Virus record (IMG/VR): IMGVR_UViG_3300044950_001783 | From: an uncultured virus (IMG/VR IMGVR_UViG_3300044950_001783) | Taxonomy: Duplodnaviria > Heunggongvirae > Uroviricota > Caudoviricetes | Reading direction: 5' to 3' (one strand) | DNA length: 20,000 nt | In this document: positions 748 to 17,897 of the stretch, one piece after another | How positions within the stretch are numbered: position 1 is the first letter of the stretch | How the letters are laid out: each line of letters begins with the position of its first letter | Made by a program: the position numbers and the translations under genes | The notes under the pieces: model-generated | Told to the model about the DNA's origin: nothing | The model's input: only the letters and a program-made list of their open reading frames with translations | Databases searched by the model: none

Positions 748-1167
748 TCATAGAGTCGGTGCACTCGCGAAACGTCCAGCTCGAAGTGGGATGTGTTGAT
801 TCAGGTTGTCGGCGACGACCCGCAATGCCCGCTGCCAGCGCCGCCACGCCGTGGTGCGATCGCAGCCGAAGCGCCGGCAGACATCCTTCCACTCGTACTC
901 CTTGGCTCGCATCCAGATAAGGTGGCGCTGCTCCTCTTCCAGCCACTGCACCCAGCGCATGGCCTCCAGCATCCGCTCGATGGCCTCGGGGCTGGGCGGC
1001 AGGGGCCGCAGTTCGATGTCCTCGCCGGACATGGCCTCCCACTCCTGGCGGGCGAACAACGGCCAGACGGTGAAGTATCCCTGCACCCGCACACGGGGCA
1101 GTCGCCGGCTGGTGTGCACCGTCTCCTGGAAGCGAGCGGCCACGTCCTCGATGGTCCATTCAGCCAT
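748..1167 (-). CDS. DUF6362-like protein with C-terminal sigma-region-4-like HTH; putative late transcription regulator (139 aa)
   Basis: MAEWTIEDVAARF...EQRHLIWMRAKEYEWKDVCRRFGCDRTTAWRRW. GGAGG RBS before ATG 1167. Last gene of the replication operon. Confidence 0.8.
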   Translation of the reverse strand: MAEWTIEDVAARFQETVHTSRRLPRVRVQGYFTVWPLFARQEWEAMSGEDIELRPLPPSPEAIERMLEAMRWVQWLEEEQRHLIWMRAKEYEWKDVCRRFGCDRTTAWRRWQRALRVVADNLNQHIPLRAGRFASAPTL

Positions 1168-1375
1168 GGTGGCCTCCCTTCCCCGACTCGCCATAGAGCC
1201 GCTCGCCGATGCGCCGGATGAACTCGCGTTCGACGAAATCCAGGCGATCGTCGGCCTCGGCAACCACCAGGATGTGTTGGCCGCGCCAGCCGTCCCGCTT
1301 CACGGCTTCCAGGTCGGTGGCCTCGGGCAGGTGACGGGCCAGGGGGCTGCGGTAGCGTGGTTCCGGGATCTTCAT
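1160..1375 (-). CDS. Small phage hypothetical protein (71 aa)
   Basis: MKIPEPRYRSPL...; the ATG overlaps the RuvC-like stop (ATGA), with GGAGG upstream. Confidence 0.75.
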   Translation of the reverse strand: MKIPEPRYRSPLARHLPEATDLEAVKRDGWRGQHILVVAEADDRLDFVEREFIRRIGERLYGESGKGGHHG

Positions 1376-1842
1376 GCGCCCACCTCCTGAGTCTCGATGG
1401 CGAAATGGAGTAGCGCCAGGGCATCCGCCTCGTTGTCGTCGCGGGGGGTGTAACCACGCGCCGTGGCTGCCGCGACCATGTCGGCCTTGCCGGCGTTGCC
1501 CTTGCCCGTGGCGTGCTTCTTGATCGTGCCCACCGGCACGCCCTGGTATGGGATGGCGTGGTGTTCGCACCAGGACGTCAGTGTGGCCATGAAGCCGCCG
1601 TAGGCGTGGGCGGCATCGATGCCCGCGTGCCGACGCACCTCCTCGAAGTAGACGACATCAATGCCGTCGCCGCTGTGCTTGATCTCGGTGAGCCATTTAC
1701 GAAACCGTAGGTAGCGCATGCCGCCGCCCTCGAAGCGCTGCGGCTTGAAGTCCTCGGTGTCGCTGATGATCTGGCCGTCCTTGAGGCGGATGGCCCAGCC
1801 GGTGTGGGTGCCCAGGTCCAGGGCAAGGATGGCGGTGTTCAT
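1372..1842 (-). CDS. RuvC-like Holliday junction resolvase, phage type (156 aa)
   Basis: ILALDLGTHTGWA, VYFEEV, IKKHATGKGNAGK and DDNEADALAL motifs; GGAGG RBS before ATG 1842. Confidence 0.85.
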   Translation of the reverse strand: MNTAILALDLGTHTGWAIRLKDGQIISDTEDFKPQRFEGGGMRYLRFRKWLTEIKHSGDGIDVVYFEEVRRHAGIDAAHAYGGFMATLTSWCEHHAIPYQGVPVGTIKKHATGKGNAGKADMVAAATARGYTPRDDNEADALALLHFAIETQEVGA

Positions 1843-1883
1843 CGTCCAACCTCCATCTGGCCACCCAGACCAGACTGCCCTCC

Positions 1884-2115
1884 ACGTAGGAGAGAGGGAG
1901 TCTGTGCTCCCTCTCCTACGTAGTAGGAGGGGGTCCGCATGCAAACATATGGAGCAAGGTAAATCGTTGATTCATCGGAAAATACGGAAGATTGCGGAAG
2001 CTTGCCGCAAACATCCGCATGCAAACTTCCAGAACACGGAGAATCCTTGTAAATCAATGACATTTGTTTGCAGTCAGTTTGCAGTTTGCGGAAGTTTGCG
2101 GGACTTTCCGCAATC
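1884..2115. other. Putative replication origin: hairpins, GCAAAC/GTTTGC repeats and an IHF consensus site
   Basis: Directly downstream of the primase-helicase. TCCGCATGCAAAC at 1934 and 2014; GCAAAC at 2007; GTTTGC at 2066, 2077, 2084, 2094; WATCAANNNNTTR match at 1960-1972 (minus); inverted repeats at 1884-1929. Confidence 0.55.
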
Positions 2116-2134
2116 ATCCTGAGCAGGGATTTCA

Positions 2135-4303
2135 TCAGGCAACGCATGTGTTTTCCTCCTCCTGGTAGATCCAGATTTCGGGGTTTTCGACAGGGAGTGG
2201 CGCCCCGGTCTGGGGGCACTTGTAGTGGGTGGGCAAGACCCGGATCGACTCGGTTAACATTTCGCCCGTGGCCTCATCCGGCGGGCCGATGGCGCGGTTG
2301 AACACCATGCCATCGACGCAGAGATAGCCGTTCCTGCTGCGACCGACCGAGGGCAGGCCATAGGGCTGGTGGTCGCGGAAGTATTTGATGTAGCCCTTGC
2401 TCGCCAGCACGGCCAAGCGCTCGTTGATGGTGCGGGAAGCGCCCAGCCCTGCCTGGCTCTCGAAGGTCTCGGCGAACTGGTTGGCCGTGTAGCAGCGGCC
2501 CTGGCCTGCCTCATCGAACAGGATCTGCAGGATCACGTCATGCTTGCGCCGCCGCTCCGCATCCAGGCGCTCACCGTAGTCCTTCATCACCAGGCGGTCA
2601 CTGTCGTCGACCTCGCGCCAGACGCCCTGAATCTTGTCGACGTGCTTGAGTGGGATGCCCGCGCCGTTGCGCAGCTCGAAGATGAGTTGCCGAGTCGTCC
2701 GGGACTCATCGGGGCGGTACAGGATCATCCCGCTGCTGTAATAGCCGCGCAGGCTGCCTGCGCCCGCAAGCGCCTGGAACGGATCTTCCTCGAACTGCTT
2801 CTTGGCGAGCTTCCGGGTGTGGTGGACCAGGATCACGCCGGCATCCGGGTTCACCTCTTGGCGTAGTCGTTCCACCCGCTGCGACAGGAAGTACAGCATG
2901 GCACCGTTGTCGTTCTCGCCACCGGCGTCGCCGCCGTCGAACACGTTGCGTATGGGATCGATGGCGATGATGTCGGGCGGCTCGCCGCCGAAGGCACGCT
3001 GGATGGCCGGGATCACCTGCGCCAGGCCTGCGTCGTCGAGGATCAACCGCAGCTGCGGTGTGGCGACGAAATTCACCCGTGCATCCAGTACCCGATGCGA
3101 GGGCAGCCGGATGCCTTTCACCCGCTCGCGCAGGTAGTAGTACTGCACCTCGGCCTGCAGATAGAAGACACGCAGGGGGCGCGCTGGATGCATGCCGAGG
3201 AAATCTGCGCCCGCTGCCATGTGGGTCAGCCAGGCGAGCAGGAAATCGCTCTTGCCGACCTTTGGCGCGCCGCCGAACACCAGTAGGCTGGCCGGAGGCA
3301 GCACACGAGGCGCAATGAGGTCCAATGGCATCGGCGAATCGTCGTCAAGCATCGCCCCCAGGCTGAAGGTGGGCAGCAGGACCGGGGCCGCCTTGATCAC
3401 CCGCCGCTCGCCTTCGCGCAGGAAGCTCGCGACGTCGAACCCCTGCTCGAAGGCATCGGCCGCATCCCAGCCGATGGGCTGATCGGCCGGCGGCACCAGG
3501 ATGGCGACCGAGGCAGCTCCCGCCGCCACGCTTGCCCGTGCGGCGGCTTCGGCGTAATCCCAGCCCGGAGGATCACGATCCGGCCAGATCACCACGTCCT
3601 TGCCGGACAAGGGTGACCAGTCGGTCTTGTCGATGGGCGCCCGCGCGCCGTTCATCGCCGTGGTCGCAGTGATGCCCTGGCGGATCAGCGCATCGGCGCA
3701 CTTCTCGCCTTCTGCCAGGATGACGGTTTCGGCCTGGGCGACGTCTGGCAGGTTGTAGAGTGGCCGGGGGTCGGGGGCGCGGCACATCCGGGCGCGCACG
3801 TCCCAGGGGCGGAACTCCTTGCGGCCCGGTTCCGGATCGTAGCGATAGACGCAGGCGATCAGTTCTCCGGTGGGGCTCAGGTAGTCCCACTTGGCGGTAT
3901 GGGGGCCGAGTTCGTCCCTGGGCGCCTCTGTGCGTGCAGGCGTCGGCTGGGCCAGGGACTGACCTGCCAACCGGGCAGCGGCCTCCATCACCGCGCCGAA
4001 GTCGCGCCGGCTGTCCAGTCCGTGGCAGAGTCCGATGAGCTCGAACACATCACCGCCCTGACCCGTGGCGTGGTCGAGCCACAGCCCCGCCTTGTCGCCG
4101 TCGAGCGCCACCTCCAGGCTGTCACCCGGATCGCCGTGGAGGTTGCCCACAACGAATTTGTGGCCGCGCATCTTTCCTGCTGGAAACAGCGCATGTAACA
4201 CCGAAGGCAGCCGGGCGAGCAGTTCGGCGCGCAGGATTTCGCGTTGTGCGGTCAGGTCGACCCGGATGCCAGTGATCGGTGGCACCTCGTTGAAATCAAG
4301 CAC
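2135..4303 (-). CDS. Primase-helicase fusion (TOPRIM + RepA/AAA_25-type SF4 helicase), 722 aa
   Basis: TOPRIM motifs ILAEGEKCADAL and VIWPDRD; Walker A GGAPKVGKS; Walker B IIAIDP; LVHHTRK. GTG at 4303 has GGGAGG upstream. Confidence 0.9.
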   Translation of the reverse strand: MLDFNEVPPITGIRVDLTAQREILRAELLARLPSVLHALFPAGKMRGHKFVVGNLHGDPGDSLEVALDGDKAGLWLDHATGQGGDVFELIGLCHGLDSRRDFGAVMEAAARLAGQSLAQPTPARTEAPRDELGPHTAKWDYLSPTGELIACVYRYDPEPGRKEFRPWDVRARMCRAPDPRPLYNLPDVAQAETVILAEGEKCADALIRQGITATTAMNGARAPIDKTDWSPLSGKDVVIWPDRDPPGWDYAEAAARASVAAGAASVAILVPPADQPIGWDAADAFEQGFDVASFLREGERRVIKAAPVLLPTFSLGAMLDDDSPMPLDLIAPRVLPPASLLVFGGAPKVGKSDFLLAWLTHMAAGADFLGMHPARPLRVFYLQAEVQYYYLRERVKGIRLPSHRVLDARVNFVATPQLRLILDDAGLAQVIPAIQRAFGGEPPDIIAIDPIRNVFDGGDAGGENDNGAMLYFLSQRVERLRQEVNPDAGVILVHHTRKLAKKQFEEDPFQALAGAGSLRGYYSSGMILYRPDESRTTRQLIFELRNGAGIPLKHVDKIQGVWREVDDSDRLVMKDYGERLDAERRRKHDVILQILFDEAGQGRCYTANQFAETFESQAGLGASRTINERLAVLASKGYIKYFRDHQPYGLPSVGRSRNGYLCVDGMVFNRAIGPPDEATGEMLTESIRVLPTHYKCPQTGAPLPVENPEIWIYQEEENTCVA

Positions 4304-4709
4304 ACGCAGCCTCCCGCAGAGCCTGGGCACGAGGCTGGCTGCGACTGGATTTGGCTGACTTTATGGGCTTCCAGAGCGCATCCTCGTTCACCAGATAGCC
4401 GGCCTTGGCCGCCACCTCCCGCACGAAATCGAGATCGATGCCGATCAGGTCGCACCAGAAACCGAGGCCCGAACCGCTTACCAGGAAGCGTCGTGCACGG
4501 TGGCGCTGGTTGTCGTCGCGGCCGATGGCATCGCCAATGGCCTGGGCAATCATCGCCACCCAAAGTTTCGTTTCCGGGCAGACCGTGACCACATGGCGCA
4601 GCAGGACTCGCTGAACCGCCTGGATGCCGATGTGGGGCCGAGCCGGCGACCACATCTCCATGCCGCCCTGCGCGTTGAAACGGATCTTTGCTTTGGTTTT
4701 TGGTTTCAT
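4296..4709 (-). CDS. Phage hypothetical protein (137 aa)
   Basis: ATG 4709 overlaps the nuclease stop (ATGA) and its own stop overlaps the primase start; helical core PETKLWVAMIAQAIGDA...FWCDLIGIDLDFVR. Confidence 0.75.
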   Translation of the reverse strand: MKPKTKAKIRFNAQGGMEMWSPARPHIGIQAVQRVLLRHVVTVCPETKLWVAMIAQAIGDAIGRDDNQRHRARRFLVSGSGLGFWCDLIGIDLDFVREVAAKAGYLVNEDALWKPIKSAKSSRSQPRAQALREAACA

Positions 4710-5440
4710 TGGGTTCTCCAACAACGGTTAGCCCAGGCGCACATGCGGCATTCGACGTGCGATGGTTCGGTGGTCATGCGAGGGAGTTGGTCGCCAGCCT
4801 CTGTGGCGGAGATCACCTTCACCGCCCGGTCCGACATGCGTTGCGCCAGGGCGGCATCGAATGGAACACGCTCGGCGTAGATCTCCATCGTGTCGGCGTT
4901 TACCGCAGTGAATAGGGCCGGGTGCTTGTAAAGTTCGAGATAGGCCTGGTAGATCGCCACCTGGGCGGCGTACACGGGTTTGGAAACGGCGAGATGCCGC
5001 TTCTCCAGATCGCGCCAGGATTTGCCACCGAGGCACTTTGACTCCCAAAGCGCCGGGTAGGCGAAGCCCTCCGGGCCGCCGACGATCACGCCATCGATAT
5101 GCCCCTGCAGCCGGCCATCGAGCAGGCTGAAGCCGAACTGCTGGCCATCCCGGCCATGGGTGCGCAGGTCGAACCCAGCCAGACGCAGCCAGTTCACCAT
5201 CTGCGCTTCGTTGTCGTGACCACGCTCGAAGATTCGCAGGATGCGCCCGGAGAATTCCTTGCCTGGATCCACCGGCGCGGCGGCGTACTCGAACTGCAGG
5301 GCGCGCTCGCAGGCCACCCCGAGCCGCGAGGCCCCGAGGTAGGCGCGGCGCTCCTGCTGCCGGGCCTTTGCCTGCATGCCGGCATCGACCAAGGCGGTGA
5401 TCTGGCCGGAGAGGGAGGAAGTGGAATTGAAGTCGAGCAT
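4706..5440 (-). CDS. PD-(D/E)XK exonuclease, Cas4/AddB-like (244 aa)
   Basis: GHIDG...WESK catalytic motifs; YAAQVAIYQ; one N-terminal Cys (ACER) plus C-terminal CRMCAWANRC. Confidence 0.85.
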   Translation of the reverse strand: MLDFNSTSSLSGQITALVDAGMQAKARQQERRAYLGASRLGVACERALQFEYAAAPVDPGKEFSGRILRIFERGHDNEAQMVNWLRLAGFDLRTHGRDGQQFGFSLLDGRLQGHIDGVIVGGPEGFAYPALWESKCLGGKSWRDLEKRHLAVSKPVYAAQVAIYQAYLELYKHPALFTAVNADTMEIYAERVPFDAALAQRMSDRAVKVISATEAGDQLPRMTTEPSHVECRMCAWANRCWRTQ

Positions 5441-5847
5441 CAGGCTGTCCTCCCTACAGGCCGAACGGGTGCGGACAGCGCCTGCTCATGGGTGGCGACC
5501 ATGGCCTCGGTCCAGGCCGTGACGATGGCGTTGACCACCGCCAGGGCCTCGGCCTCGCTGTAGTGGCCCAGGGGCTTGTCAAAGCCGATCTCGGCGGCCG
5601 CCTCGCCGAATGGGCGCAGGCAGGCCCGCATGGCGGCAAGTTCCATCTCGGTCGGATCAATCATGAACACTTCCTCCAGTTCGGGGTCCTTGTCTTTCCA
5701 GGATCCATAGAGGGCATGGAAGGCGGCCTGACACCGGCGCGAGCAGAAGACCCAGTTGCGCGGAACGGAGCGGAGATCGCTGGGCCGGTAACGGGTGTCC
5801 ATGTGCCCGAACCCGAAGGTTTGTCGTGTGCAGATGAGGCATTTCAC
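5440..5847 (-). CDS. DUF6511-like protein with N-terminal Zn-finger (135 aa)
   Basis: CLIC...FCSRRC, then MIDPTEMELAAM...IGFDKPLGHYSEAEAL; overlaps both neighbours. Confidence 0.75.
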   Translation of the reverse strand: MKCLICTRQTFGFGHMDTRYRPSDLRSVPRNWVFCSRRCQAAFHALYGSWKDKDPELEEVFMIDPTEMELAAMRACLRPFGEAAAEIGFDKPLGHYSEAEALAVVNAIVTAWTEAMVATHEQALSAPVRPVGRTA

Positions 5848-7547
5848 GCCACCTCCTGCATCAGGACCGCGTCGTTGGCAGAGTGGCTGGCTTGCTCACC
5901 GGCGCGCAGCACCAACTGCTGGATCGCACGCTTGTTGAACTGGAAGGTCAACAAGACCGAGGCCTGGTAGCGGGTTAGACCGAAATCTGCTCGCTTTTCG
6001 GGGGGCAGATAGTTGAGTTGCTTCTCCGTGGCCGGCTCGTTGATCCAACGGCGCGTCTTATGCGCGGAGCCCTCCGACTCGTGGTCGTTGAGCCAGTCGT
6101 CGGCCTTGGCCAGGCACACCGTGCGCTCCCCGATGGCCAGGAGGTGGGGGCGGCTTTCCTTGGCCCCGCCCACGGCATACCAGCGACCCGCAAGGAAATA
6201 GACGCCGCCCCAGGCACTGAAGCCGGTGGCCATCATGGTGTCGTCGTTCCCGAACAGATCAATCCAGCGGAAGTTCGAGCGCTTGAGCAGGTCGATCTCG
6301 CTCATTACGAAGTTGGTCAGTGCCTCCACGGCGCGCACTTCGCGTTCCCAGACATGACCACACAATGGACATTCCATGACGGCGAGCGGGACGATGGCCC
6401 CGCAGTCCGGGCAGTCCTTGGTCGGTGCCTCACCCTCCGTCAGGTGGCCGTCGAGGTTAACCTCCTGCTCCAGCGAGCCATGCATCAGGCTGGCCGTACC
6501 AAAGTCCAGGACGATACAGTCGGCCTTGATGACGCCGGGGAATTCCTCAGGGTCGATGGTGCGCAGTCCGCGACCGACCATCTGGATGAAGGTGGACTTG
6601 TAGGAACTGGGGCGCAGCAGCACTACACAACTGGTCGGCGGGTAATCGTAGCCCTCCGTGAGCACGGCCACGTTGACCACAACCCTGGCCTGGCCCCGTT
6701 CATAGTCGGCCAGACGTGCGCGGCGCTCGGTATCGGCCAACTCGCCATGGATCAGCACGGTGGGAATGCCCGCCGCGTTGAAGGCCTGGCAGACGCTGTC
6801 GGCGTGCGCCACTGTTGAGCAGAACACGATGGTCTTGCGGTCGCCGGCCTTTTCCCGCCACCGGGCGATCACCGCGTCGGTGATCAACTGCTTGTTCAGG
6901 ATGGCCGCCACCTCGTCCATGTCGAAGTCGATGGCGGTGCGGCGGACATTGGAGAGTGCATCCTGCACGCCGACGTCGATGACGAAGGTGCGCGGCGGCA
7001 CCAGGTGGCCGGCGGCGATCATCTCGCCCAGGGAGATCTGGTCGGCGACGTTGTCGAACACCTCGCGCAGGCCCTTGCCATCCCCCCGGTTGGGGGTGGC
7101 GGTGAGGCCGCAGATGCCGGCCTTCGGATTCCTGGCCAGCACCTGGTCGATGACCGCGCGGTAGCTGGGCGACGCGGCGTGGTGCGCCTCGTCGATCACC
7201 AGCAGGTCGAGCGTGGGCATCTGCTCGAGATGGAGTCCTCGCGAGAGGGTCTGCACCATGGCGAAGGTGGCGTGGCCCGCCCACGATTTCTCGGTCGCGT
7301 CGAACACCGAGGTCGTGAGGCCCGGGTTGACGCGGGCGAACTTGGCGCGGTTCTGGCCGGTGAGTTCCGTGCGGTGGGCGAGGATGCAGACCTTTGCGTC
7401 CGGTTCTGCCAACAGGCTACCGGCAACCGCCGACAACATGATGGTCTTGCCGCTGCCCGTCGGGGCCACCGCCAGGGTGTTGCCATGCTGATCGAGTGCA
7501 TCGAGCGTGCGCTCGACCAGCAGGGTTTGTCGGGGACGAAGCATCAT
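5844..7547 (-). CDS. SF2 DEAH-box helicase (RadD/YejH-like, phage) with C-terminal Zn finger (567 aa)
   Basis: APTGSGKT, DEAHH, GLTATP, QMVGRGLR, CPDC...CPLC. Confidence 0.93.
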   Translation of the reverse strand: MMLRPRQTLLVERTLDALDQHGNTLAVAPTGSGKTIMLSAVAGSLLAEPDAKVCILAHRTELTGQNRAKFARVNPGLTTSVFDATEKSWAGHATFAMVQTLSRGLHLEQMPTLDLLVIDEAHHAASPSYRAVIDQVLARNPKAGICGLTATPNRGDGKGLREVFDNVADQISLGEMIAAGHLVPPRTFVIDVGVQDALSNVRRTAIDFDMDEVAAILNKQLITDAVIARWREKAGDRKTIVFCSTVAHADSVCQAFNAAGIPTVLIHGELADTERRARLADYERGQARVVVNVAVLTEGYDYPPTSCVVLLRPSSYKSTFIQMVGRGLRTIDPEEFPGVIKADCIVLDFGTASLMHGSLEQEVNLDGHLTEGEAPTKDCPDCGAIVPLAVMECPLCGHVWEREVRAVEALTNFVMSEIDLLKRSNFRWIDLFGNDDTMMATGFSAWGGVYFLAGRWYAVGGAKESRPHLLAIGERTVCLAKADDWLNDHESEGSAHKTRRWINEPATEKQLNYLPPEKRADFGLTRYQASVLLTFQFNKRAIQQLVLRAGEQASHSANDAVLMQEVA

Positions 7548-7561
7548 GTCGGCGTCCTCCC

Positions 7562-8191
7562 TTACTGCGCCCAGGCGGGTTTGCCGCCGGGAATTCCCGA
7601 GGGTCGGGCTGCGGGCGCGGCAGGCTGCGGATAGGAAGGCATCGCCGGGGCTCCACCTTGGCCGCCACTCGACGGCCCCGTCCTGGCGGCCACTCCCATC
7701 AACGCCGCATAGTCCTTGTGATCCGGCTCGATCACTGCCTTGATGGTGTTCTTGTCGTTGCCCTTGGCATCCTTTTCGATATCGATGCGGGCTGCAAACT
7801 CCATGCCGTCGAGTTCGGCAAAGCCGCCGATGCGCCGGGCTGCCACGGCTTGCGGGCTGTTGTCACCCGGATGCACGTTGCGGGCGCTGTTGAGGGCTGC
7901 ACGCACGAAGGTGCGGCCCATGGCCTGCCAGGTGGGGCCCTTGGAAGAATGCAGCCCCACGTTCCACCAGATCTTGCGCCGGGCATAGGGGCCTTCCATG
8001 ACCACGCCCTCGAAGGCGAGATAGATGGAACCCGTGTCCTGGGAGTAGGTGGCCCATCCGCCGGTCCAGCCCTGCGCGGGATCATCGTAGCCACCCGGCT
8101 TGATGGCCGTGCGGATGCGCGCCAGGGTGCCTTTCGGGATCAGATCGAAGGAGGTTTGTTCTGCGGCGTCGTTGTAATCGAAGAAACTCAT
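7562..8191 (-). CDS. Putative phage ssDNA-binding protein (209 aa)
   Basis: Follows the Sak4-like ATPase; beta-rich core with a G/P/A-rich tail ending KPAWAQ; AGGAG RBS. Confidence 0.65.
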   Translation of the reverse strand: MSFFDYNDAAEQTSFDLIPKGTLARIRTAIKPGGYDDPAQGWTGGWATYSQDTGSIYLAFEGVVMEGPYARRKIWWNVGLHSSKGPTWQAMGRTFVRAALNSARNVHPGDNSPQAVAARRIGGFAELDGMEFAARIDIEKDAKGNDKNTIKAVIEPDHKDYAALMGVAARTGPSSGGQGGAPAMPSYPQPAAPAARPSGIPGGKPAWAQ

Positions 8192-8193
8192 GG

Positions 8194-9072
8194 TCAGGAC
8201 TCCTGAGAAAGGGATTCGGTGCTGGATGCGGGGGTGGGGGCCGGGCGTGTGAAGTCGAGCCGCTGGGCGGCGGGCCGGGCGGGGCCGGCGATCTTGTCCA
8301 TGAGGCGACCGAGGTGCGGCTCCTCGATGGCATCGAGCCGCCCGGAACGATCCTTAGCCGGATAGCCCCATTCGTTGAGGGTGTGGCAGACGAAAGCGCG
8401 ATACGCGGTGCCGTCGTCAGCCTTGAGTTCGGCCAGCGTCACCACCTCGTCGACGATGCCCGGCAGTTCGAGCCCGGTCTTGGAGCCGTCGATCTGCAGT
8501 TGGAAAATCCGCCGATTGAAATCGTCGAGCCGTTCGTCGAGGATGCCGACGAACCAGACGTTCTTGCGCCGGGTGTGCTGCAGATGGGTGAGCCAGGCGA
8601 TCATTTCCTGGCCCATCAGGCCATAGGCGCCCCGGCTGTCCGGCTTGCCGGTCTTCTCGGAATAGGCCTGCGGCTGCCCCTTGCACCATTGCAGGCAGAA
8701 GCGCCCTGCCACGGTGATGGAGTCGACGAAGACGGTGTCGTATTTGTCCAGCGCGGCGGGGTCACCGAAGCGCTGGCAGACGGCTTCGAAATGGGCATGA
8801 CTGAACGGCTGGTCGTCGCGCAGCGCTGGGTTGGGACCGCCGATGAAGACCGCGAAGTCACGGCATTCCTGCCATGTGCGGGGACGGATGGTGTCGCTCG
8901 CATTTCCCTCTACGGCCAGGTCGCCCGCCTCGAGGTCAAGAAACAGGGTAGCCACGGGATTGAGCGTCCACAGCTGCGAGGTCTTGCCGATGCCGGATTT
9001 GCCGACGAGCACGCCCTTGACGCCGCGACGCTCGGCCAGCCGTTGCTCGGCGGAGATGATGGGAAGTGCCAT
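8194..9072 (-). CDS. AAA_24/Sak4-like phage ATPase (single-strand annealing family)
   Basis: Walker A GKSGIGKT, LFLDLEAG, Walker B VFVDSIT, C-terminal AKDRSG. Confidence 0.85.
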   Translation of the reverse strand: MALPIISAEQRLAERRGVKGVLVGKSGIGKTSQLWTLNPVATLFLDLEAGDLAVEGNASDTIRPRTWQECRDFAVFIGGPNPALRDDQPFSHAHFEAVCQRFGDPAALDKYDTVFVDSITVAGRFCLQWCKGQPQAYSEKTGKPDSRGAYGLMGQEMIAWLTHLQHTRRKNVWFVGILDERLDDFNRRIFQLQIDGSKTGLELPGIVDEVVTLAELKADDGTAYRAFVCHTLNEWGYPAKDRSGRLDAIEEPHLGRLMDKIAGPARPAAQRLDFTRPAPTPASSTESLSQES

Positions 9073-9602
9073 CACATTCCCTCCTCGCCACGACGCAGGG
9101 TGAACTTCGGCGCCTTGGGCTTCATCGTGCGCGCGGCCTCGAAAGGCTGGCGCAAGGTGTCCGGCCAGGCTTTGAACTTCGCCTCGCTGACACTGTATTT
9201 CGTGACAATGTATTGGGCGGGGTCTTCACCGCTGGCGGCGATCTGGCTCCAGATGGCCTGGAGTTGCCGCTGATCCCACTGCGTGTCCTTGCCGATCTCG
9301 ATGGCGATGTCGTATTCACCATCGGTGATGTGCGTGGTGCCGGTATCCCTGCCCAAGGCGTGCAACTGCGTCCGGGCCTGCTCGGCAAAGCGCAGATCCA
9401 GACCGCCCTGGATCATGGTGGCTAGGGCGGCGAGCCCGGATTTCAGATTCGCCTCGAAGCGCTGCAGGTCGGCCACGCATGCCAGAGGCAGGTCACGAAT
9501 GACCTGTGCCGACAAGCCGAGGTAGGGAACTGGCAGATCGATGCCGCTGGTAGCAAACGCCACTTCCATAGGCATGCTCAGGTTGGGGGAGGAAGTGTTC
9601 AT
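9072..9602 (-). CDS. Phage hypothetical protein (176 aa)
   Basis: ATG 9602 overlaps the HTH stop (ATGA); its stop overlaps the ATPase ATG (TGATG). Confidence 0.75.
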   Translation of the reverse strand: MNTSSPNLSMPMEVAFATSGIDLPVPYLGLSAQVIRDLPLACVADLQRFEANLKSGLAALATMIQGGLDLRFAEQARTQLHALGRDTGTTHITDGEYDIAIEIGKDTQWDQRQLQAIWSQIAASGEDPAQYIVTKYSVSEAKFKAWPDTLRQPFEAARTMKPKAPKFTLRRGEEGM

Positions 9603-9811
9603 GCCATTTCCTCCGCCGTGGCGCGCTTCGAGGTGCTGGTCTTGAGGCACTGGACTTCATAGGCCTCGATGTCCTCCTGCCGATACAACACTCGGCCATG
9701 GATCTTGAGATGGATGGGACCGATGCCCTCGGAACGCCAGCGTTCCAGGGAGGCTTCGCTGATGCCCCAGCGGTCGGCCAGTTGGCGTTGGTTGAGATGT
9801 TTGATGCTCAC
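9599..9811 (-). CDS. Excisionase/AlpA-like HTH protein (70 aa)
   Basis: LNQRQLADRWGISEASLERWRSEGIGP..KIHGRVLY is a MerR-like winged HTH; GTG start with AAGGAG RBS. Confidence 0.85.
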   Translation of the reverse strand: MSIKHLNQRQLADRWGISEASLERWRSEGIGPIHLKIHGRVLYRQEDIEAYEVQCLKTSTSKRATAEEMA

Positions 9812-9849
9812 GTTTGACTCCTTTCGGTGGTTGCGGAAACGTGAGGCGG

Positions 9850-9908
9850 ATTGTGGAAATCAGGGGGTGGGCAAACCGGTGGGCAAGGTGGACGGAACCT
9901 GTGGGCAA
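9850..9908 (-). promoter_or_regulatory. Putative activator-dependent promoter of the replication operon, with GTGGGCAA direct repeats
   Basis: GTGGGCAA (+ strand) at 9867, 9879, 9901 and degenerate GTGGACGG at 9888. -10-like CACAAT on the minus strand at 9855-9850; the -35 position reads CGGTTT. Confidence 0.55.
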
Positions 9909-9943
9909 ATCAGGTAATCGATTCCTGCCAAGGGATCACAGAC

Positions 9944-9970
9944 AAAAAAAAGCCCGGCGATCAACCGGGC
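9944..9970 (-). terminator. Intrinsic terminator after DUF2188
   Basis: GCCCGG / CCGGGC stem (9952-9970) followed by T8 on the minus strand. Confidence 0.85.
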
Positions 9971-10004
9971 AGGAGAGCAATCTGCTCTGGGGCATCGATC
10001 GTTA

Positions 10005-10229
10005 TCAGCCCTTGGGCGGGAACGGATCGTTGCCGTAGCTGTTGCGTTCGCGGATGCGTCCGTTCTCACCGTGGATGAGCACTTCGCTTTGCTGGTTGAT
10101 CGCGATGTCACGCGCCGCACGTTCGGCATCAGCCTGCGTGCGGTGATGCGAGGTATCGCGTTCGTTGCCTTCGCCGCGAACGGCCCATCCGTCTTCACGG
10201 GGTACTACATGCTGGTTCTTGCCTGCCAT
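10005..10229 (-). CDS. DUF2188 family protein (74 aa)
   Basis: HVVPREDGWAVRGEG...TQADAERAAR...SEVLIHGENGRIRERNSYGNDP; AAGGA RBS. Confidence 0.88.
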   Translation of the reverse strand: MAGKNQHVVPREDGWAVRGEGNERDTSHHRTQADAERAARDIAINQQSEVLIHGENGRIRERNSYGNDPFPPKG

Positions 10230-10291
10230 ATCGGTTCCTTTCGGAAATAGAGTTTGTGATCAGGGAATGATTGGGGACGTTATCTGTGCGT

Positions 10292-11248
10292 TTACCTCCT
10301 CACTAGGGTTGCGAATTCAGGTTTCAGCCAGTAGTGACCCTTCTGGTCTGCCTCGGCGAAGACCTCGAAGATCAGCCGGTGACGTTTGATGATGTCGGCA
10401 AGACGGAACTTCTCTGGTTCGATACCCAGCCGCTCGGCCAGATGGCGTTTATGTACTTCATCGCCGTCAAACTCTTCCAGCACCGTGAGAAGTCCATGAA
10501 GTTGCGGCGGAACTTTGTGTTCCAGCCCCTCGATGAGCGCGACCCGTTTGCTGTGCAGCAGGCGCAACGAGGTTTCCCTCGTATTGACAGTCGGCACCAT
10601 CCCGGTGAGGTAGGCATCCAGGTTCTCGACGACCAGCCCCGCCTTCCTGAGATGCGCCACTGCGCGCAGGGGCACGGTCAACCGGTCTCCGAGTACCGTT
10701 TTCGTCAAGGCCACAGGATCGCTGGAGGTGATGATGACCTCGGCGCCCGGCGCGACCTGTCTGTCGAGTTCATCGCGCACTATCGCCGCCGACGGCACCA
10801 GGTGCCGCCCAAAAAACAGAGTAAGCCGCCTGCGCCTGTATTCGGCTTCGCCCAGACGCCAGAGAACATCCGGCACGACGGCATCGGGTGGGCTACGTGA
10901 CGTCAGGTGCAATGCACTTGCCAGCCAACCGGCAATTTTGGCCGAATGGGCAAGCCAGAGACGGGCCTGATCGGGCCGCAAGCGGATCCAGCCACAATCC
11001 GGGCAATAGCCCCGGTACGGGAAGGCGCCCCTGTCGTCATCGGTGTTCGCGTTGGGCTCGATGACCGGGCCGCAGCAGTCCGGACAGACGATGCCGGCGG
11101 TCAGGTCGTTCGACAGGGACAATGCGCCCACCTCGCGCAGATGACGGTACACGTCCATTCTGTCACCCCGCCAGATGGCATCCGGCTCCAGGCGAGGGTC
11201 AGGCTGTTCGAGCAGCCAGCACAGTTCAGTGAATGCCTGATCTCTCAC
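10292..11248 (-). CDS. Uncharacterised 318-aa protein with Zn ribbon and probable C-terminal winged HTH
   Basis: CPDCC...YCPDCG. The C-terminus LHGLLTVLEEFDGDEVHKRHLAERLGI...KGHYWL is OmpR-type wHTH-like. GTG overlaps the upstream stop (GTGA). Confidence 0.75.
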   Translation of the reverse strand: MRDQAFTELCWLLEQPDPRLEPDAIWRGDRMDVYRHLREVGALSLSNDLTAGIVCPDCCGPVIEPNANTDDDRGAFPYRGYCPDCGWIRLRPDQARLWLAHSAKIAGWLASALHLTSRSPPDAVVPDVLWRLGEAEYRRRRLTLFFGRHLVPSAAIVRDELDRQVAPGAEVIITSSDPVALTKTVLGDRLTVPLRAVAHLRKAGLVVENLDAYLTGMVPTVNTRETSLRLLHSKRVALIEGLEHKVPPQLHGLLTVLEEFDGDEVHKRHLAERLGIEPEKFRLADIIKRHRLIFEVFAEADQKGHYWLKPEFATLVRR

Positions 11249-12501
11249 GCAGGCATTTCCAAGGACAGATCAGTCGAGGCAGGCGTGCCAGCGCTGCTTG
11301 CCGGGGTCTGCATCACCCCCCACGCCTGCAACAGTGCCTCGACCAGCTGGGCATCTGCTTCGTCCATGTCGCGCAGATTGCTGATTCCTGCCTGCTTGAT
11401 CTCGATATGCAGCACTCGGCCTGATTTGTCACCATCCCTTGGCAGGAAATACAACGAGACAACCGCTTCCAGGATATTGAAACCCTGACTCATCAGGACA
11501 TGGTCAAGCCGCTGTGCCTTCACGCAGTCGAGGACGTCGGGTGCGTTCTTTTGGCCGGGCGGCTTGATGATGTGGTCACAGTGTGGTGGCAGGTTGGCAT
11601 GAAGCCTGGCTTGGGAGAGCCGGATTTTTTCGACACCATGTGCAGCCAGGTCGATCTGACTGTCATCGAACAGCTCGAAGCCATCGCGTAAGCGATTGAG
11701 AAAGAACATCGGCGCGTCGATGTTTTCGACCTGCAAAGGTTTCTGGAAGATGTGCTTACCCAGGAGAGGCAATAACTTTTTCAGGGTTTTCTCGCCCCCA
11801 GACGCGAGGATGTCCATCACACCGGTTGCCGGGTAGATGACGGCATCCATCTTCATGGGGGGCCTGATGTCCCGCCAGCGTGCGCGATCGTCATCTCCGA
11901 ATTCCAGCTGGCGCTGGACGTTGTCCTCAATGAGCAGTGCCAGCTGCACGCCACCGTCGAGATGGCGGTCGACAGGTTCGATCTCGCAGGCGCGGGGCCG
12001 GCCTTTTCGAGGTGTGAATGCCTCGCCTACCGCCAGCTCAAGTGCCCGAATGTCCTCGGTACTACGAAACAGTACATCGCACGGTGGGAACTTGAATCGT
12101 TTCCACCCGCGTATGCCGGTGCGCAAGTTGGCGTCGAGGATGGCCGCAGCAGCTTTGAACAACTCAGGCCAGTTGGCCATAGTCCACAAGGCACGCTCGG
12201 CATCACATGAAAGCTTGGTGAAATCGTCGTGCAACGCCGCGTCTGGCTTGGCGACATTGCGAATGGCATCAATGCCGCGCCGGTTGGCAAAGGCATGAAC
12301 CTGTCGCAACTCACCAAGGACCATTCTGGTCAGACTCGCGTCGAGTGATTCCGTGATCGCGATCAGGGATTTTGTCAGTTTGTCCGCTGGCACGCCCCAG
12401 TCATGACCGTCGGGAAGCGCGATCGCACGTGACTGGAAGTAGTACTGCCAGGAACGGCCTGGCACCTGATGGATCAAACGGCGGTAGTTGAAGGCGGCCA
12501 T
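11245..12501 (-). CDS. Uncharacterised 418-aa protein
   Basis: ATG 12501 (MAAFNYRRLIHQ) with AAGGA RBS; long open frame coupled to the next gene; no motif recognised. Confidence 0.8.
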   Translation of the reverse strand: MAAFNYRRLIHQVPGRSWQYYFQSRAIALPDGHDWGVPADKLTKSLIAITESLDASLTRMVLGELRQVHAFANRRGIDAIRNVAKPDAALHDDFTKLSCDAERALWTMANWPELFKAAAAILDANLRTGIRGWKRFKFPPCDVLFRSTEDIRALELAVGEAFTPRKGRPRACEIEPVDRHLDGGVQLALLIEDNVQRQLEFGDDDRARWRDIRPPMKMDAVIYPATGVMDILASGGEKTLKKLLPLLGKHIFQKPLQVENIDAPMFFLNRLRDGFELFDDSQIDLAAHGVEKIRLSQARLHANLPPHCDHIIKPPGQKNAPDVLDCVKAQRLDHVLMSQGFNILEAVVSLYFLPRDGDKSGRVLHIEIKQAGISNLRDMDEADAQLVEALLQAWGVMQTPASSAGTPASTDLSLEMPA

Positions 12502-12637
12502 CTTGGTGTTCCTTTTCGAGATAGGCCACAGTCCATCCGACATTCGTCCGGTGTGCGTGAGGCCGGGTTGCGTCAAAGCACCCTTTAGTGGCGCATATAA
12601 ACAAATATATTCGTTCGCTATATCGGGTGTTTGCGGC

Positions 12638-12666
12638 AAGTTAACAGCCGATGATTGTCTTGTCAA
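12638..12666 (-). promoter_or_regulatory. Sigma70 promoter for the leftward operon
   Basis: TTGACA (12666-12661), 17-nt spacer, TAACTT (12643-12638). Confidence 0.7.
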
Positions 12667-12764
12667 GTCGGTGCTATTTCGTTCGGAATAATGTATGTTT
12701 CCACCAGTGAAAAACCTTTGCAGCCACTGCAAATCCGGTACATAGAGGAAATCAGGAGAAACCT

Positions 12765-13091
12765 GTGGCAACCCCATTGGGCGAGAAAATCCGCAAGCTG
12801 CGTCGCGACAAGAAGTTGAGTCTGGAGGCCCTCGCGGCCGCAGCGGAAATGAGCAAGAGTTACTTGTGGGAGTTGGAGAACAACGACGACGCCAACCCCA
12901 CCATGGACAAAGTGTCACGCATCGCTGCCGTACTTGAAGTCACACCGGAGTTCCTGGCTCATGACAAGCAGGCCGATACGCCCCAGGATGCGTTCGACAA
13001 GGCATTCTTCAGGAACTACAAATCCCTCAGGCCTGAAACCAAGCAGCAACTGCTAGAAATTCTCAAAACTCTCAAGAAGACGCAAGGATGA
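12765..13091 (+). CDS. XRE-family HTH repressor, CapH-like (108 aa)
   Basis: LGEKIRKLRRDKKLSLEALA...SKSYLWELEN...NPT HTH; F81-F82-R83-N-Y motif before the C-terminal helices; GTG with AGGAG RBS. Confidence 0.9.
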   Translation: MATPLGEKIRKLRRDKKLSLEALAAAAEMSKSYLWELENNDDANPTMDKVSRIAAVLEVTPEFLAHDKQADTPQDAFDKAFFRNYKSLRPETKQQLLEILKTLKKTQG

Positions 13092-14047
13092 CGGCAGCTG
13101 ATCTCGGCCCGATCCCTTGGGCAAATCGGCTTAATCGTCTGCTGGATCAGTACCATGGTATCCATGGCGGCCTGCGATATCCGGTCGACGTCGAATTTCT
13201 TGCTCAGCAGATCCCACAGCAGTTCAACACGGGTGAACCGATTCTGGTTCGGGGTGAAGAAATCAGCCCGGACTTCGAGGGCTGCCTGCTCAAGCTGGAC
13301 GACGAGACAGGTGGACCACCCTCCTGGGCGTTGATCTACAACAAGGGACTTCCTTCGCCTGGTCGTATCCGCTTCACCCTGGCACACGAGTTAGGGCACT
13401 ACCTCTGCCATCGACAACTGCAAGAGGGCTTCAATTGCAATGAATTCGATACCCTGCACTGGGAATCGCCAGAGCGCCAGCTGGAGGTGCAGGCCAACAA
13501 GTTCGCTGCCTATCTGTTGATGCCGCGCCCGGACTTCGAAGCACAAATCCGTTCTGCCCCGGTTGATCTCGAAATTCTGGGGGCTTGCGCTGAACGATAT
13601 GGCGTATCGCTCACCGCTACCGTGCTGAAATGGCTGGAATTCACCCCAATGCGTGCCCTGTTGGTGATGTCGCGCGATGGGCGCGTGCAATGGGCGCGCG
13701 GCAGCGAATCGGGCAAATGGCTGGCTATTGCAATGAATAAGCGGCTACCAACCGGGCAGCGAAGGTCATTGCCGGCGCAGTCCACCACCATGCTGAATAC
13801 AACGAGCAACGTTGATCGGCAAGGTACGGAAGGCTCTGCACGAATCTGGTTCGCAGACGAGCCCGAGGACATGTCCCTTCGTGAGATGAAGATCGTCTCG
13901 GATCAATACCGGCAGACCATGACCCTGCTGGTCCTGCCGCCGGAGGTTAAGCCATGGGAGCGCGACAAACGCGATGGGGACGATGACGAAGAACTGGAAA
14001 ACACCTTCGATCATTTCGTTCGCAACGGCCAGCCACCCGTGCGATAA
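13088..14047 (+). CDS. ImmA/IrrE-family Zn metallopeptidase, CapP-like (319 aa)
   Basis: RIRFTLAHELGH, then GFNC, EVQANKFAAYLLMP, HTH (AERYGVSLTA) and a GAF-like C-terminus; ATGA overlap with the repressor. Confidence 0.92.
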   Translation: MTAADLGPIPWANRLNRLLDQYHGIHGGLRYPVDVEFLAQQIPQQFNTGEPILVRGEEISPDFEGCLLKLDDETGGPPSWALIYNKGLPSPGRIRFTLAHELGHYLCHRQLQEGFNCNEFDTLHWESPERQLEVQANKFAAYLLMPRPDFEAQIRSAPVDLEILGACAERYGVSLTATVLKWLEFTPMRALLVMSRDGRVQWARGSESGKWLAIAMNKRLPTGQRRSLPAQSTTMLNTTSNVDRQGTEGSARIWFADEPEDMSLREMKIVSDQYRQTMTLLVLPPEVKPWERDKRDGDDDEELENTFDHFVRNGQPPVR

Positions 14048-14064
14048 GGACTGGTAGGTCGAGC

Positions 14065-15404: not shown

Positions 15405-15623
15405 ATGCATGACATCAACCATCTACCCCCCGAGCGGATGACCCCGCAGCAGCGTCGGCACGAGATCGCGTCGTTGCTGGCCAGAGCACTCGTGCGCCTT
15501 CGCTGCGGGAAGCCTCGGCAGTCCGCAAACATGGCTGCGGAGAACGAGTTTGACCTTGGCTTCACTGGTAACCAGCGCGTTCATTCAGACCCCGTCAACA
15601 ATAGAAAAACGGAGCCAAGATGA
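15405..15623 (+). CDS. Small hypothetical protein heading the recombinase operon (72 aa)
   Basis: AGGAG RBS; the stop overlaps the DUF2924 ATG (ATGA). Confidence 0.7.
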   Translation: MHDINHLPPERMTPQQRRHEIASLLARALVRLRCGKPRQSANMAAENEFDLGFTGNQRVHSDPVNNRKTEPR

Positions 15624-16120
15624 GCACGCCCACCAGAATTCCTGCGACACCTCCTTCAATCGTTTCGCAGATCGCCAGATTGCCCGACGTCCCTATGGCC
15701 GACATCCAGGCCCTTTGGCAGAAACTGTTCGGTGCCGATACGCCGAACCACAATCGGCAATTCCTCGAGCGCCGCATTGCCTACCGGTTGCAGGAGGTGG
15801 AGTTCCGCAAGGTGAACGCCAGTCTGCTGGATCGAAACAAGCGCCGAATCGCATCTCTACTGGAGACCGGCAAGATCAAGAAGCGCGATCGTGATTACCG
15901 GCCCACAGCAGGTACCGCGCTGACCCGTGAATACCAAGGTGTTGCATATCACGTGGTCGCCACCAGCGACGGCCAGTACGAATTCGAAGGCCGGATGTAT
16001 CCGAGCCTGTCCATGATCGCGCGTGAGATCACCGGAACCCGGTGGTCAGGGCCACTATTCTTCGGAATCAAAGCCCCTGCCAAACCGAAAGCATCGGTCA
16101 AGAAGGGAGGCCGGCGATGA
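15620..16120 (+). CDS. DUF2924 family protein (166 aa)
   Basis: LWQKLFG...FLERRIAYRLQE...GTALTREYQG...YPSLSMIAREITGTRWSGPLFFG. Confidence 0.88.
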   Translation: MSTPTRIPATPPSIVSQIARLPDVPMADIQALWQKLFGADTPNHNRQFLERRIAYRLQEVEFRKVNASLLDRNKRRIASLLETGKIKKRDRDYRPTAGTALTREYQGVAYHVVATSDGQYEFEGRMYPSLSMIAREITGTRWSGPLFFGIKAPAKPKASVKKGGRR

Positions 16121-17472
16121 GTGAGGTTCTGAAACGACGCATGCGCTGCGCCGTCTACACCCGCAAGTCCAGCGAGGAAGGGCTGGACCAGGAATACAAC
16201 TCCATCGATGCCCAGCGCGACGCCGGCCATGCCTACATCGCCAGTCAGCGTGCTGAAGGCTGGATTCCGGTGGCGGATGACTACGACGACCCCGCGTTCT
16301 CCGGTGGCAACATGGAGCGACCGGCACTCAGGCGCCTGATGGTCGACATCGAAGCCGGCAAGGTCGACATCGTGGTGGTCTACAAGATCGACCGTCTGAC
16401 CCGGAGCCTGGCGGACTTCTCCAAGATGGTGGAGGTGTTTGAACGTTACGGGGTGTCGTTCGTTTCGGTGACCCAGCAGTTCAATACCACGACCTCGATG
16501 GGGCGGTTGATGCTCAACATCCTGCTGTCCTTCGCCCAGTTCGAGCGGGAGGTCACCGGCGAACGCATCCGCGACAAAATTTCCGCCAGCAAGCGCAAGG
16601 GTATGTGGATGGGTGGCATTCCACCTCTTGGATACGACGTTGAGAATCGACGACTGGTGCTCAATGAGCGAGAGGCCAAGATCATCCGGCACATCTTCCA
16701 GCGCTTCGTCGAGCTCGGTTCCAGCACAAAACTGGTCAAGGAACTGAAGCTGGACGGTGTGACTTCAAAATCCTGGACCACCCAAGATGGCAAGATTCGC
16801 GAAGGCAAGCCCATCGACAAGAGTCTGATCTACAAACTGCTCAACAACCGGACCTACCTCGGTGAGTTGCGCCACAAGGAATTGTGGTACCCGGCCGAGC
16901 ACACATCCATCGTCGAGCGCGATCTTTGGGACAACGTCCATGCGATCCTGTCCAGCAATGGCCGGGTACGAGGCAACGCCACCCGGGCGACAGTGCCATT
17001 TCTGCTCAAGGGCATCGTGTTCGGCCACGACGGACGCGCGTTGTCTCCGTGGCACACCACCAAGAAGAATGGCCGCCGTTACCGGTATTACCTACCTCAA
17101 CGGGATGCCAAGGAGCACGCCGGGGCATCTGGGTTGCCACGTCTGCCGGCCGCAGAACTGGAATCGGCTGTGCTCGACCAACTGCGCGCGATCTTGCGTG
17201 CCCCTGATTTGCTTGGCGACGTGCTGCCGCACGCAATCGAACTCGACCCGACACTCGATGAGGCCCAGATTACCGTGGCCATGACGCGCCTCGACGCGGT
17301 TTGGGACCAGTTATTCCCAGCCGAGCAGACCCGGATCGTCAAACTCATGGTCGAGAAGGTGATCGTGTCACTCAACGACCTCGAAGTGCGTCTGCGCGCC
17401 AACGGCATCGAACGTCTGGTACTGGAACTGCGTCCTGAGACAGCCGCGCAGGACGAGGAGGCAACAGCATGA
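16117..17472 (+). CDS. Large serine recombinase (resolvase + recombinase domains), 451 aa
   Basis: CAVYTRKS (catalytic Ser), SGGNMERPAL, VVYKIDRLTRS, FAQFERE, PPLGYD, NRTYLG. ATG 16117 overlaps the DUF2924 stop and has a GGGAGG RBS. Confidence 0.95.
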   Translation: MSEVLKRRMRCAVYTRKSSEEGLDQEYNSIDAQRDAGHAYIASQRAEGWIPVADDYDDPAFSGGNMERPALRRLMVDIEAGKVDIVVVYKIDRLTRSLADFSKMVEVFERYGVSFVSVTQQFNTTTSMGRLMLNILLSFAQFEREVTGERIRDKISASKRKGMWMGGIPPLGYDVENRRLVLNEREAKIIRHIFQRFVELGSSTKLVKELKLDGVTSKSWTTQDGKIREGKPIDKSLIYKLLNNRTYLGELRHKELWYPAEHTSIVERDLWDNVHAILSSNGRVRGNATRATVPFLLKGIVFGHDGRALSPWHTTKKNGRRYRYYLPQRDAKEHAGASGLPRLPAAELESAVLDQLRAILRAPDLLGDVLPHAIELDPTLDEAQITVAMTRLDAVWDQLFPAEQTRIVKLMVEKVIVSLNDLEVRLRANGIERLVLELRPETAAQDEEATA

Positions 17473-17897
17473 GTGAGACGCTTATCCACAAAACAGGAAC
17501 ACCCGATGTCATCGCATCCAGCGATGGCAGGTTGACCCTGAAGGTGCCCATTCAGATCAAACGCCGCAGTGGACGCAAACTGGTCACATTGCCGAACGGC
17601 GAAACCGCCAAGCCACGGCCCTGGGATATTGCCGCCACACCACTGCAGTTGGCTCTGGCCCGTGGTCACCGCTGGCTTGCCATGCTGGAGTCGGGTGAAG
17701 CGAAGACCCTGAAAGAGATCGCCGTGCGCGAGGGGATCGACAACAGCTACGTGAGTCGGATGGTCAACCTGACCACGCTCGCGCCCGACATCGTGGCCGC
17801 CATTTTGGACGATGCACTGCCGAACCACTTGACGCTATTCGACCTGGCAGTCGATCCGCCGGCGCTGTGGGAGGAACAGCGGGCCCGGATCGGATAG
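17469..17897 (+). CDS. Recombinase-associated HTH protein (142 aa)
   Basis: IKRRSGRK...ALARGHRW...TLKEIAVREGIDNSYVSRMVNLTTLAPDIV; ATGA overlap with the recombinase. Confidence 0.8.
   Translation: MSETLIHKTGTPDVIASSDGRLTLKVPIQIKRRSGRKLVTLPNGETAKPRPWDIAATPLQLALARGHRWLAMLESGEAKTLKEIAVREGIDNSYVSRMVNLTTLAPDIVAAILDDALPNHLTLFDLAVDPPALWEEQRARIG

Follow-up and report, generated by a model that had tools for sequence, protein, structure and literature searches.

A putative CapH/CapP-controlled two-gene activator in a proposed induction switch of a tmRNA-associated prophage

The window analysed here, a 20,000-nucleotide stretch of DNA from an uncultured virus of the Caudoviricetes (IMG/VR record IMGVR_UViG_3300044950_001783), is one end of a temperate phage that lies as a prophage beside a tmRNA gene. 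Within it, a gene pair encoding the repressor CapH and the peptidase CapP diverges from an operon of three genes, denoted A, B and DUF2188. We consider it probable that this region is a two-step induction switch, in which CapH/CapP would release the A-B-DUF2188 operon, and B together with A would activate the early operon headed by an HTH_17 gene. The features of the proposed switch are as follows.

12765..13091, plus strand: capH, an XRE repressor of 108 amino acids (aa); PADLOC capH, E 2.9e-26; PDB 7T5U, E 3e-13
13088..14047, plus strand: capP, an M78 zinc peptidase of 319 aa with a cysteine switch, a linker and a GAF region; PADLOC capP, E 1.7e-66
12638..12666, minus strand: promoter of the A-B-DUF2188 operon, with TTGACA (12666-12661), a 17-bp spacer, and TG plus TAACTT (12643-12638)
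12685-12679 and 12617-12611: two CGAAC(G/A)A boxes on either side of the TTGACA promoter, present in the window and in kin
11245..12501, minus strand: gene A, 418 aa, predicted to have a helical N-terminus and TBP-like domains resembling RdgC, CENP-N and YejK
10292..11248, minus strand: gene B, 318 aa, predicted to have a four-cysteine zinc ribbon, a middle alpha/beta domain and a C-terminal OmpR/PhoB-type winged helix
10005..10229, minus strand: DUF2188 protein, 74 aa (PADLOC candidate PDC-S16), between B and the terminator
9944..9970, minus strand: intrinsic terminator ending the operon, with a stem (9970-9952) and a U tract; -13.8 kcal/mol, z -3.4
9908-9901, 9886-9879 and 9874-9867, minus strand: phased direct repeats TTGCCCAC, with a degenerate copy at 9893-9888; the one at 9874-9867 overlaps the -35 position
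9850..9855, minus strand: weak -10 of the early promoter, CACAAT
9599..9811, minus strand: HTH_17 excisionase-like gene from the domain scan, first in the replication/recombination operon

In the lysogen, CapH on the boxes flanking the TTGACA promoter would keep A-B-DUF2188 low, as suggested by the homology of CapH and the conservation of the boxes. DNA damage would then give rise to single-stranded DNA, on which CapP would cut CapH at F82-R83 and release the operon; such cleavage is described for the E. coli and Thauera homologues in the available text of Lau et al. (2022, 10.1101/2022.04.27.489752). As the terminator would block read-through, the signal would pass on as protein. The winged helix of B is expected to bind the phased repeats, the last of which would substitute for the missing -35, and B, acting as a class II activator, would recruit RNA polymerase to the replication/excision operon headed by HTH_17. 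A, with its RdgC/RexA-like DNA-binding fold, would assist B, most likely as a DNA-holding co-activator, which is the least certain step. Repression and cleavage are proposed on homology to tested proteins, activation on comparative evidence, and the role of A on fold and fusion only.

The CapH/CapP sensor and its divergent promoter

A first-pass annotation, made from the letters of this DNA, had placed an XRE gene, a HELGH peptidase gene and open reading frames of 418 and 318 aa here, and had read the first two as a CapH/CapP-like sensor. All four lie where it put them, with overlaps of 4 bp within each pair, and the reading of the sensor is borne out by homology. Residues 8-292 of CapP align to residues 10-285 of PDB 7T5T (E 3.4e-63), its zinc motif HELGH lies at 100-104 (H100/E101/H104) with E133 as the third ligand, and C117 aligns with the switch cysteine of 7T5T, a switch found in one third of CapP proteins (Lau et al. 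2022). F81-F82-R83 of CapH matches the cut site F82|R83 of E. coli CapH. Judged by sequence, the pair is CapH/CapP. The same annotation had found no cI/S24 autopeptidase, and indeed an S24 domain was absent both among the 23 window proteins scanned and in G002, a matching provirus record of 26.9 kb that is about 46% complete, the remainder of the phage being outside the record.

The leftward promoter had been called near-consensus, which holds for its perfect -35 and not for its -10, where only 3/6 positions agree; a consensus promoter scan returned 0 promoters in 9000-15000, missing the TTGACA promoter with its 3/6 -10. The layout is nevertheless kept in kin. We take the CGAAC(G/A)A boxes on its two sides as putative CapH operators by inference. 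In CBASS, the site to which CapH binds spans 22 bp and precedes the -35, according to the available text of Lau et al. (2022).

Across 114 loci, the sensor slot upstream of A holds CapH/CapP in 91, LexA-like S24 repressors in 8, XRE-M78 fusions in 4 and a separate XRE plus M78 pair in 2, with 9 unassigned, so that the slot is of the cleavable-repressor type in 105/114. Given the LexA-like S24 repressors in the same slot, the RecA independence that had been inferred for this switch, a possibility here, does not extend to the whole family. As a separate observation, a CBASS-type operon with CapP/CapH, DUF2188 and a SMODS nucleotidyltransferase lies near a phage region in L222 (933-3744), where DUF2188 occurs with CapH/CapP in a defence setting.

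Genes A and B as part of the phage core

Two coupled unknown genes had been noted before the terminator; the A/B pair stands, and the third gene, DUF2188, had been overlooked. A and B form conserved nameless families (114 and 126 homologues), for which Pfam, NCBIfam and PADLOC gave no name. A matches phrog_37634, of unknown function; a PDB sequence search with the A profile gave no match, and tblastn of A against annotated phage records gave no relative, a fusion protein of Acidithiobacillus phage AcaML1 surfacing only by profile. This protein, Gp6, is an A-B fusion (hidden Markov model (HMM) E 6.5e-16 and 2.3e-8; hhalign 95.8% and 68.8%), and A-B fusions are also present in L098 and its kin.

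The model of A (mean confidence, pLDDT, 86.9) was made from P0001, which is 99% identical to the protein of the window. It matches RdgC by Foldseek (E 5.5e-6, TM 0.19), CENP-N (Z 9.3), RdgC again (Z 6.3) and, domain-wise, YejK, suggesting that A belongs domain-wise to the RdgC/CENP-N-like fold family. In the model of B (pLDDT 90.6), residues 226-311 superimpose on the DNA-binding domain of VicR (Z 8.8, root-mean-square deviation 2.3, 85 residues aligned), and the top 30 rows of a wide fold search are OmpR/PhoB/ToxR/SARP-type domains. A wide B profile reaches response regulators at E 0.001, and Pfam PF00486 is found in only 1/78 members of the wide alignment. No Response_reg match was obtained in 110 or 78 B members; the N-terminus is a ribbon of four invariant cysteines instead, and the invariant residues listed are G133, C55, C58, C82 and W130. 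Based on these folds, we propose B as the activator and A as its partner. The prediction of an A-B complex scored 0.00, which counts neither way. The match of L268 in G203 to the B profile was set aside, being probably an ordinary response regulator.

To place the two genes in their context, three samples were compared. In 96 loci gathered with A as query (not dereplicated, with the window's own record among them, and counted where the flank is long enough), B follows A in 91/93, capH diverges in 82/84 and capP in 79/81, DUF2188 follows in 82/86 and HTH_17 in 62/80. Two further sets of 80 loci were gathered by AAA_24 to avoid selection on A. Homologues of A and B occur in 49/49 loci of the first set with at least 2.9 kb upstream of HTH_17, a count obtained with an HMM iterated on those same loci, some of which gave weak or missing first-pass values, and in 25/30 loci of the second set with at least 7 kb upstream. 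Among the five loci of the second set that lack A and B, L239 has an XRE plus M78 peptidase pair facing a sigma-70-like gene, and L241 is without phased repeats, as is the A/B-less kin L243. Genes of this phage family accompany A in 59/61 loci with at least 4 kb upstream, the other two looking like broken remnants. In this synteny survey, of the kind that the first-pass annotation had suggested, A and B appear to be core genes of this phage group, not cargo.

The B profile matches 9/201 genomes of the class of G001, mostly in this phage type, with two AlpA/tyrosine-integrase islands, where B is shorter, and one probably false match. In L274 (6588-9026) and L275 (7477-10100), an A/B-like pair with a shorter B precedes an AlpA gene, within islands that carry a tyrosine integrase and type I restriction-modification genes. 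Decayed copies were observed too: the promoter repeats are deleted in L052, the sensor is lost in L044, and L056 and L065 are isolated modules with a broken capP or B.

The first-pass annotation had overlooked that the literature already carries this gene set as a likely defence system. In the available text of Lau et al. (2022), known or likely defence systems include a 'DUF2188 + hypothetical protein system' of Extensimonas perlucida, in which DUF2188 stands with CapP, CapH and two hypothetical proteins; the latter (WP_144728457.1 and WP_144728459.1) are the A/B pair of L070, which lies in the phage context described here. A, B and DUF2188 could accordingly be a DNA-damage-induced anti-phage system carried on a prophage, perhaps with GAPS4-like ring and nuclease subunits, an explanation that we regard as unlikely. 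CapH/CapP do head defence operons, DUF2188 is the PADLOC candidate PDC-S16, and the middle domain of B has weak nuclease-fold matches (Bax1 and VC1899, Z 5.4-5.5). GAPS4, as described in the available part of PMC13748975, likewise has two genes, sometimes fused, a ring-forming subunit and a link to DNA damage; the nearest named atlas cluster of A is GAPS4b_N at 0.80, a lead only, and A has no GAPS4b match in NCBIfam or PADLOC. Against this, the position of A and B in the phage core is fixed, the gene order is opposite to that of GAPS4, and B lacks the PD-(D/E)xK motif HGxD-SxK. Among 78 sequences, only E208 is an acidic residue kept in at least half within the middle domain (100-215), with no lysine and no conserved catalytic set. 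B ends instead in an activator-type winged helix whose clade predicts the promoter repeat. DUF2188 is seen mainly with the A/B clade of the window and is absent from most other A/B clades; alone, it may still be defensive.

Phased repeats and the early promoter

Before the replication operon, the first-pass annotation had described a strong terminator, phased direct repeats and a -10-like hexamer with no -35, all of which are found. Three copies of an 8-mer arose in 71/5000 shuffles and in 12/994 sub-windows across the 20 kb, five of which are the repeat site itself. A terminator-like hairpin lies upstream of the repeats in 90/104 loci compared with 50/520 random stretches. In the clade of the window, the hexamer 11 bp after the last repeat has A at position 2 in 53/54 loci and T at position 6 in 53/54, which means that the last repeat covers the -35.

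The repeats were surveyed in 104 dereplicated loci (of 149) that have A, B and HTH_17. A phased 6-mer pair precedes HTH_17 in 103/104, and at least two pairs in 71, compared with 619 and 21 of 2080 random stretches. The B proteins form nine clusters with one repeat per cluster, the clade repeats including TGCCCAC, GCCCGTACA and CCTACC. Repeat-region similarity follows the winged helix of B (rho 0.72, and 0.72 with HTH_17 held fixed) and A (0.72), compared with 0.19 for HTH_17; p-values are not given for these correlations because the pairs depend on one another. The final 45 bp, by contrast, follow HTH_17 (rho 0.52). In 93 pairs where HTH_17 is at least 90% identical and B is less than 30% identical, the median repeat similarity is 0.08. 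The clade's own repeat occurs in at least two copies in 96/104 loci, fewer copies or an own variant in 8, and the repeat of another clade in 0/104, with the caveat that the repeat patterns were drawn from these same loci. Altered recognition helices accompany altered repeats (L002; L132, L144 and L160; L107 versus L152), and the trees of the second A/B clade are compatible with one or two origins of this change. In genome G001, three co-resident kin prophages carry three different repeats.

The arrangement of the module also varies. It is inverted, pointing away from HTH_17, in 21/96 A-gathered loci, and in 18/19 inverted loci the repeats have remained with HTH_17 while B lies kilobases away; the one other locus carries a deletion. 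In the main inverted clade (L003-L010, L014, L050-L055, L061-L064, L078, L091, L093), the whole recombinase-capP-capH-A-B-DUF2188 block is flipped with respect to the replication operon. A second inversion, independent of this clade, is that of L276, in which B and HTH_17 are both new, so that it does not separate the one from the other. Insertions and the loss of DUF2188 between B and the repeats bring no repeat mismatch, and modules on both sides swap freely. No distant second copy of the clade repeat was found in the loci scanned, in the window, or among the matches listed for five genomes, and there is consequently no evidence for activation of a late promoter.

B, with A, could also bind the repeats without activating transcription, if they serve as the replication origin or as a site of the excision complex, or if B represses the early promoter; we give this little chance. 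Winged helices do bind iterons and operators as well, A resembles the DNA-encircling RdgC and RexA, and extra repeat clusters surround HTH_17 in one lineage. However, a conserved xAxxxT hexamer that has no -35 follows the last repeat at 11 bp, which is the geometry of a class II activator, the terminator precedes the repeats, and other iteron-like repeats sit after the primase gene. A damage-induced repressor of the replication operon would moreover be a poor fit.

The weakest alternative, which we hold to be very improbable, is that the repeats belong to HTH_17 for autoregulation or ride along by linkage, while A and B act otherwise, such as by antitermination at 9970-9944 or by RexA-like modulation of the switch: excisionases do bind phased repeats, a competing fold over a longer stretch can capture the left arm of the terminator, and B and the repeats may be linked, yet one and the same HTH_17 N-terminus goes with three different repeats (L030, L122/L124 and L173), the A-B operon points away from HTH_17 in the inverted loci, so that read-through cannot be needed, and cross-clade mismatches are absent despite the insertions and DUF2188 losses. 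RexA is reported to bias the lambda switch in the available part of PMC11077077.

Beyond the shared training loci and dependent pairs noted with those counts, several points weigh against activation by B and A. A and B correlate equally with repeat similarity (partial 0.29 each); the fold, not the correlation data, is what would mark B as the repeat-linked protein. The whole-chain match of A to RdgC is weak (TM about 0.2), and 9/114 loci have no recognised sensor upstream of A, the fused A-B lineage among them. As B and the repeats adjoin in most loci, cassette swap or joint inheritance could mimic specificity, and no remote target was found that would break this linkage. A search with AAA_24 of the inverted clade gave no inverted locus with another B type, the main inverted clade having one B type, and L276 shows no clear -10 after its repeats. 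Taken together, the cascade from sensor to two-gene activator to repeat promoter that had been suggested from the letters is well supported by fold, synteny and repeat co-variation; all of this is comparative, and physical linkage of B and the repeats may still play a part.

Three further observations concern this region. The fused A-B lineage (L278-L285) has its own GAGCGTCT repeat, with no repressor gene upstream in L278 and L283. L071 (5950-6620), L015, L020, L021 and L024 carry one more unit of terminator and repeats ahead of HTH_17, together with a repeat cluster where the next gene begins. In RNA contigs (one study, 4 runs, at most 2 samples, depth 2-8), coverage is higher for capH/capP, DUF2188 and the 5' portion of A than for the replication operon; these contigs were left unused, since genes cannot be ranked from contigs and some of the signal may be carried-over DNA.

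Known systems, prophage setting and significance

The two sensor proteins, their divergent layout, the cysteine switch and the cleavage-site residues are all shared with CapH/CapP of Lau et al. (2022), the difference being that the paper counts the set among known or likely defence systems, whereas here it is a constant component of a prophage and lies ahead of an activator-type promoter. In ImmR/ImmA of ICEBs1 and phi105, as related in that paper, an M78 peptidase likewise cleaves a helix-turn-helix repressor in trans, and an element is thereby mobilised. ImmA differs in being RecA- or RapI-dependent, and the available text of Lau et al. describes no separate activator step. For SetR-SetCD of the SXT/R391 integrative and conjugative elements, AcaCD and FlhDC, the available part of PMC4542580 describes a damage-cleaved repressor that frees a two-subunit activator over a missing -35, of which the window shares the site geometry. 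A and B differ from these activators in their sizes of 418 and 318 aa, the OmpR-type DNA-binding end, the separate peptidase sensor, the phage setting and the single target promoter found. FlhC or FlhD gave no Pfam match in A/B, with the same Pfam models also missing SetC/AcaC, and none was among the listed fold matches. Sizes and folds point to another family; the cascade would work like SetR/SetCD, and membership in that family is not claimed. Its logic also resembles that of PrtR/PrtN of pyocins, again with no claim to family membership.

With activators of the OmpR/PhoB/ToxR/SARP type, B shares the C-terminal winged-helix fold and tandem direct repeats overlapping the -35; in PhoB boxes, such repeats lie about 11 bp apart over the -35. 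Unlike that family, B has no recognised receiver domain or kinase, and has a zinc ribbon, a middle domain and a dedicated partner gene instead. A falls into the same split TBP-like fold family as lambda RexA, RdgC and YejK, and RexA, encoded in the immunity region, favours the lytic state according to the available part of PMC11077077. RexAB exclusion differs in that B models as a soluble winged-helix protein and not as a RexB-like membrane partner, and whole-chain similarity is low. No paper in the literature searched assigned a function to A/B or described the switch; the supplements of Lau et al. lay outside the search, and these genes may already be treated by Burroughs and Aravind (2020), to whom Lau et al. 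refer for DUF2188. The available parts of PMC5567305 and PMC3826726 hold nothing on the regulation of AcaML1. The logic is known and the activator family apparently new.

The remaining features place the switch within the prophage.

19536-19896, minus strand: tmRNA gene at the prophage end
15405..17897, plus strand: integration module from the domain scan, with a 72-aa gene, DUF2924, a large serine recombinase and a 142-aa gene (DUF2924 and the recombinase span 15620-17897)
748..9602, minus strand: early operon, with Sak4-like AAA_24, helicase, DUF6511, Cas4-like nuclease, primase/helicase, RuvC-like resolvase and DUF6362

Terminase genes lie farther left, as seen in G002, and the nearest annotated phage by AAA_24 is AcaML1 (67%). 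From its position, the attachment side is likely the 3' end of the tmRNA gene; attB of AcaML1 is written 'srrA' in the available part of PMC3826726, which is probably ssrA. A 404-aa gene of no assigned function, present in only some kin, occupies an accessory slot 3' of capP on the capH-capP strand (14065-15279, plus strand). In the kin prophage L276, the accessory slot that separates capP from the recombinase module carries a class A beta-lactamase gene (10241-11176). A 376-aa cargo gene with a weak TPR-like match sits between the recombinase module and the tmRNA gene (18081-19211, plus strand), and is found in L096 too. Short CGCAAAC/TGCAAAC-type repeats after the primase gene (1950-2110) and before a methylase gene (410-460) are possible origin and packaging or promoter sites.

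Considering the family as a whole, A and B may be an undescribed two-part activator family, in which a DNA clamp resembling RdgC is paired with, or fused to, a winged helix of the OmpR type. The family would gate the induction of a widespread group of serine-recombinase prophages (kin of AcaML1) and of some AlpA-type islands. It would be served by interchangeable damage sensors (CapH/CapP, LexA-like and XRE-M78) and would have diversified into nine or more activator/repeat specificities, which would keep co-resident prophages from inducing one another, and CapH/CapP would have been a phage induction sensor first, later reused by CBASS. To this wider reading we give an even chance.

If the proposed switch is real, a published candidate defence system would be reassigned as the switch that induces a common and little-studied group of prophages, and two conserved hypothetical proteins would gain a function. 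It would also add an activator architecture, a clamp-like subunit with a winged helix, that was not found in the literature searched. Matched activator/repeat pairs could serve as orthogonal damage-inducible switches, and the phage offers a setting in which to ask whether CapP needs RecA in vivo.

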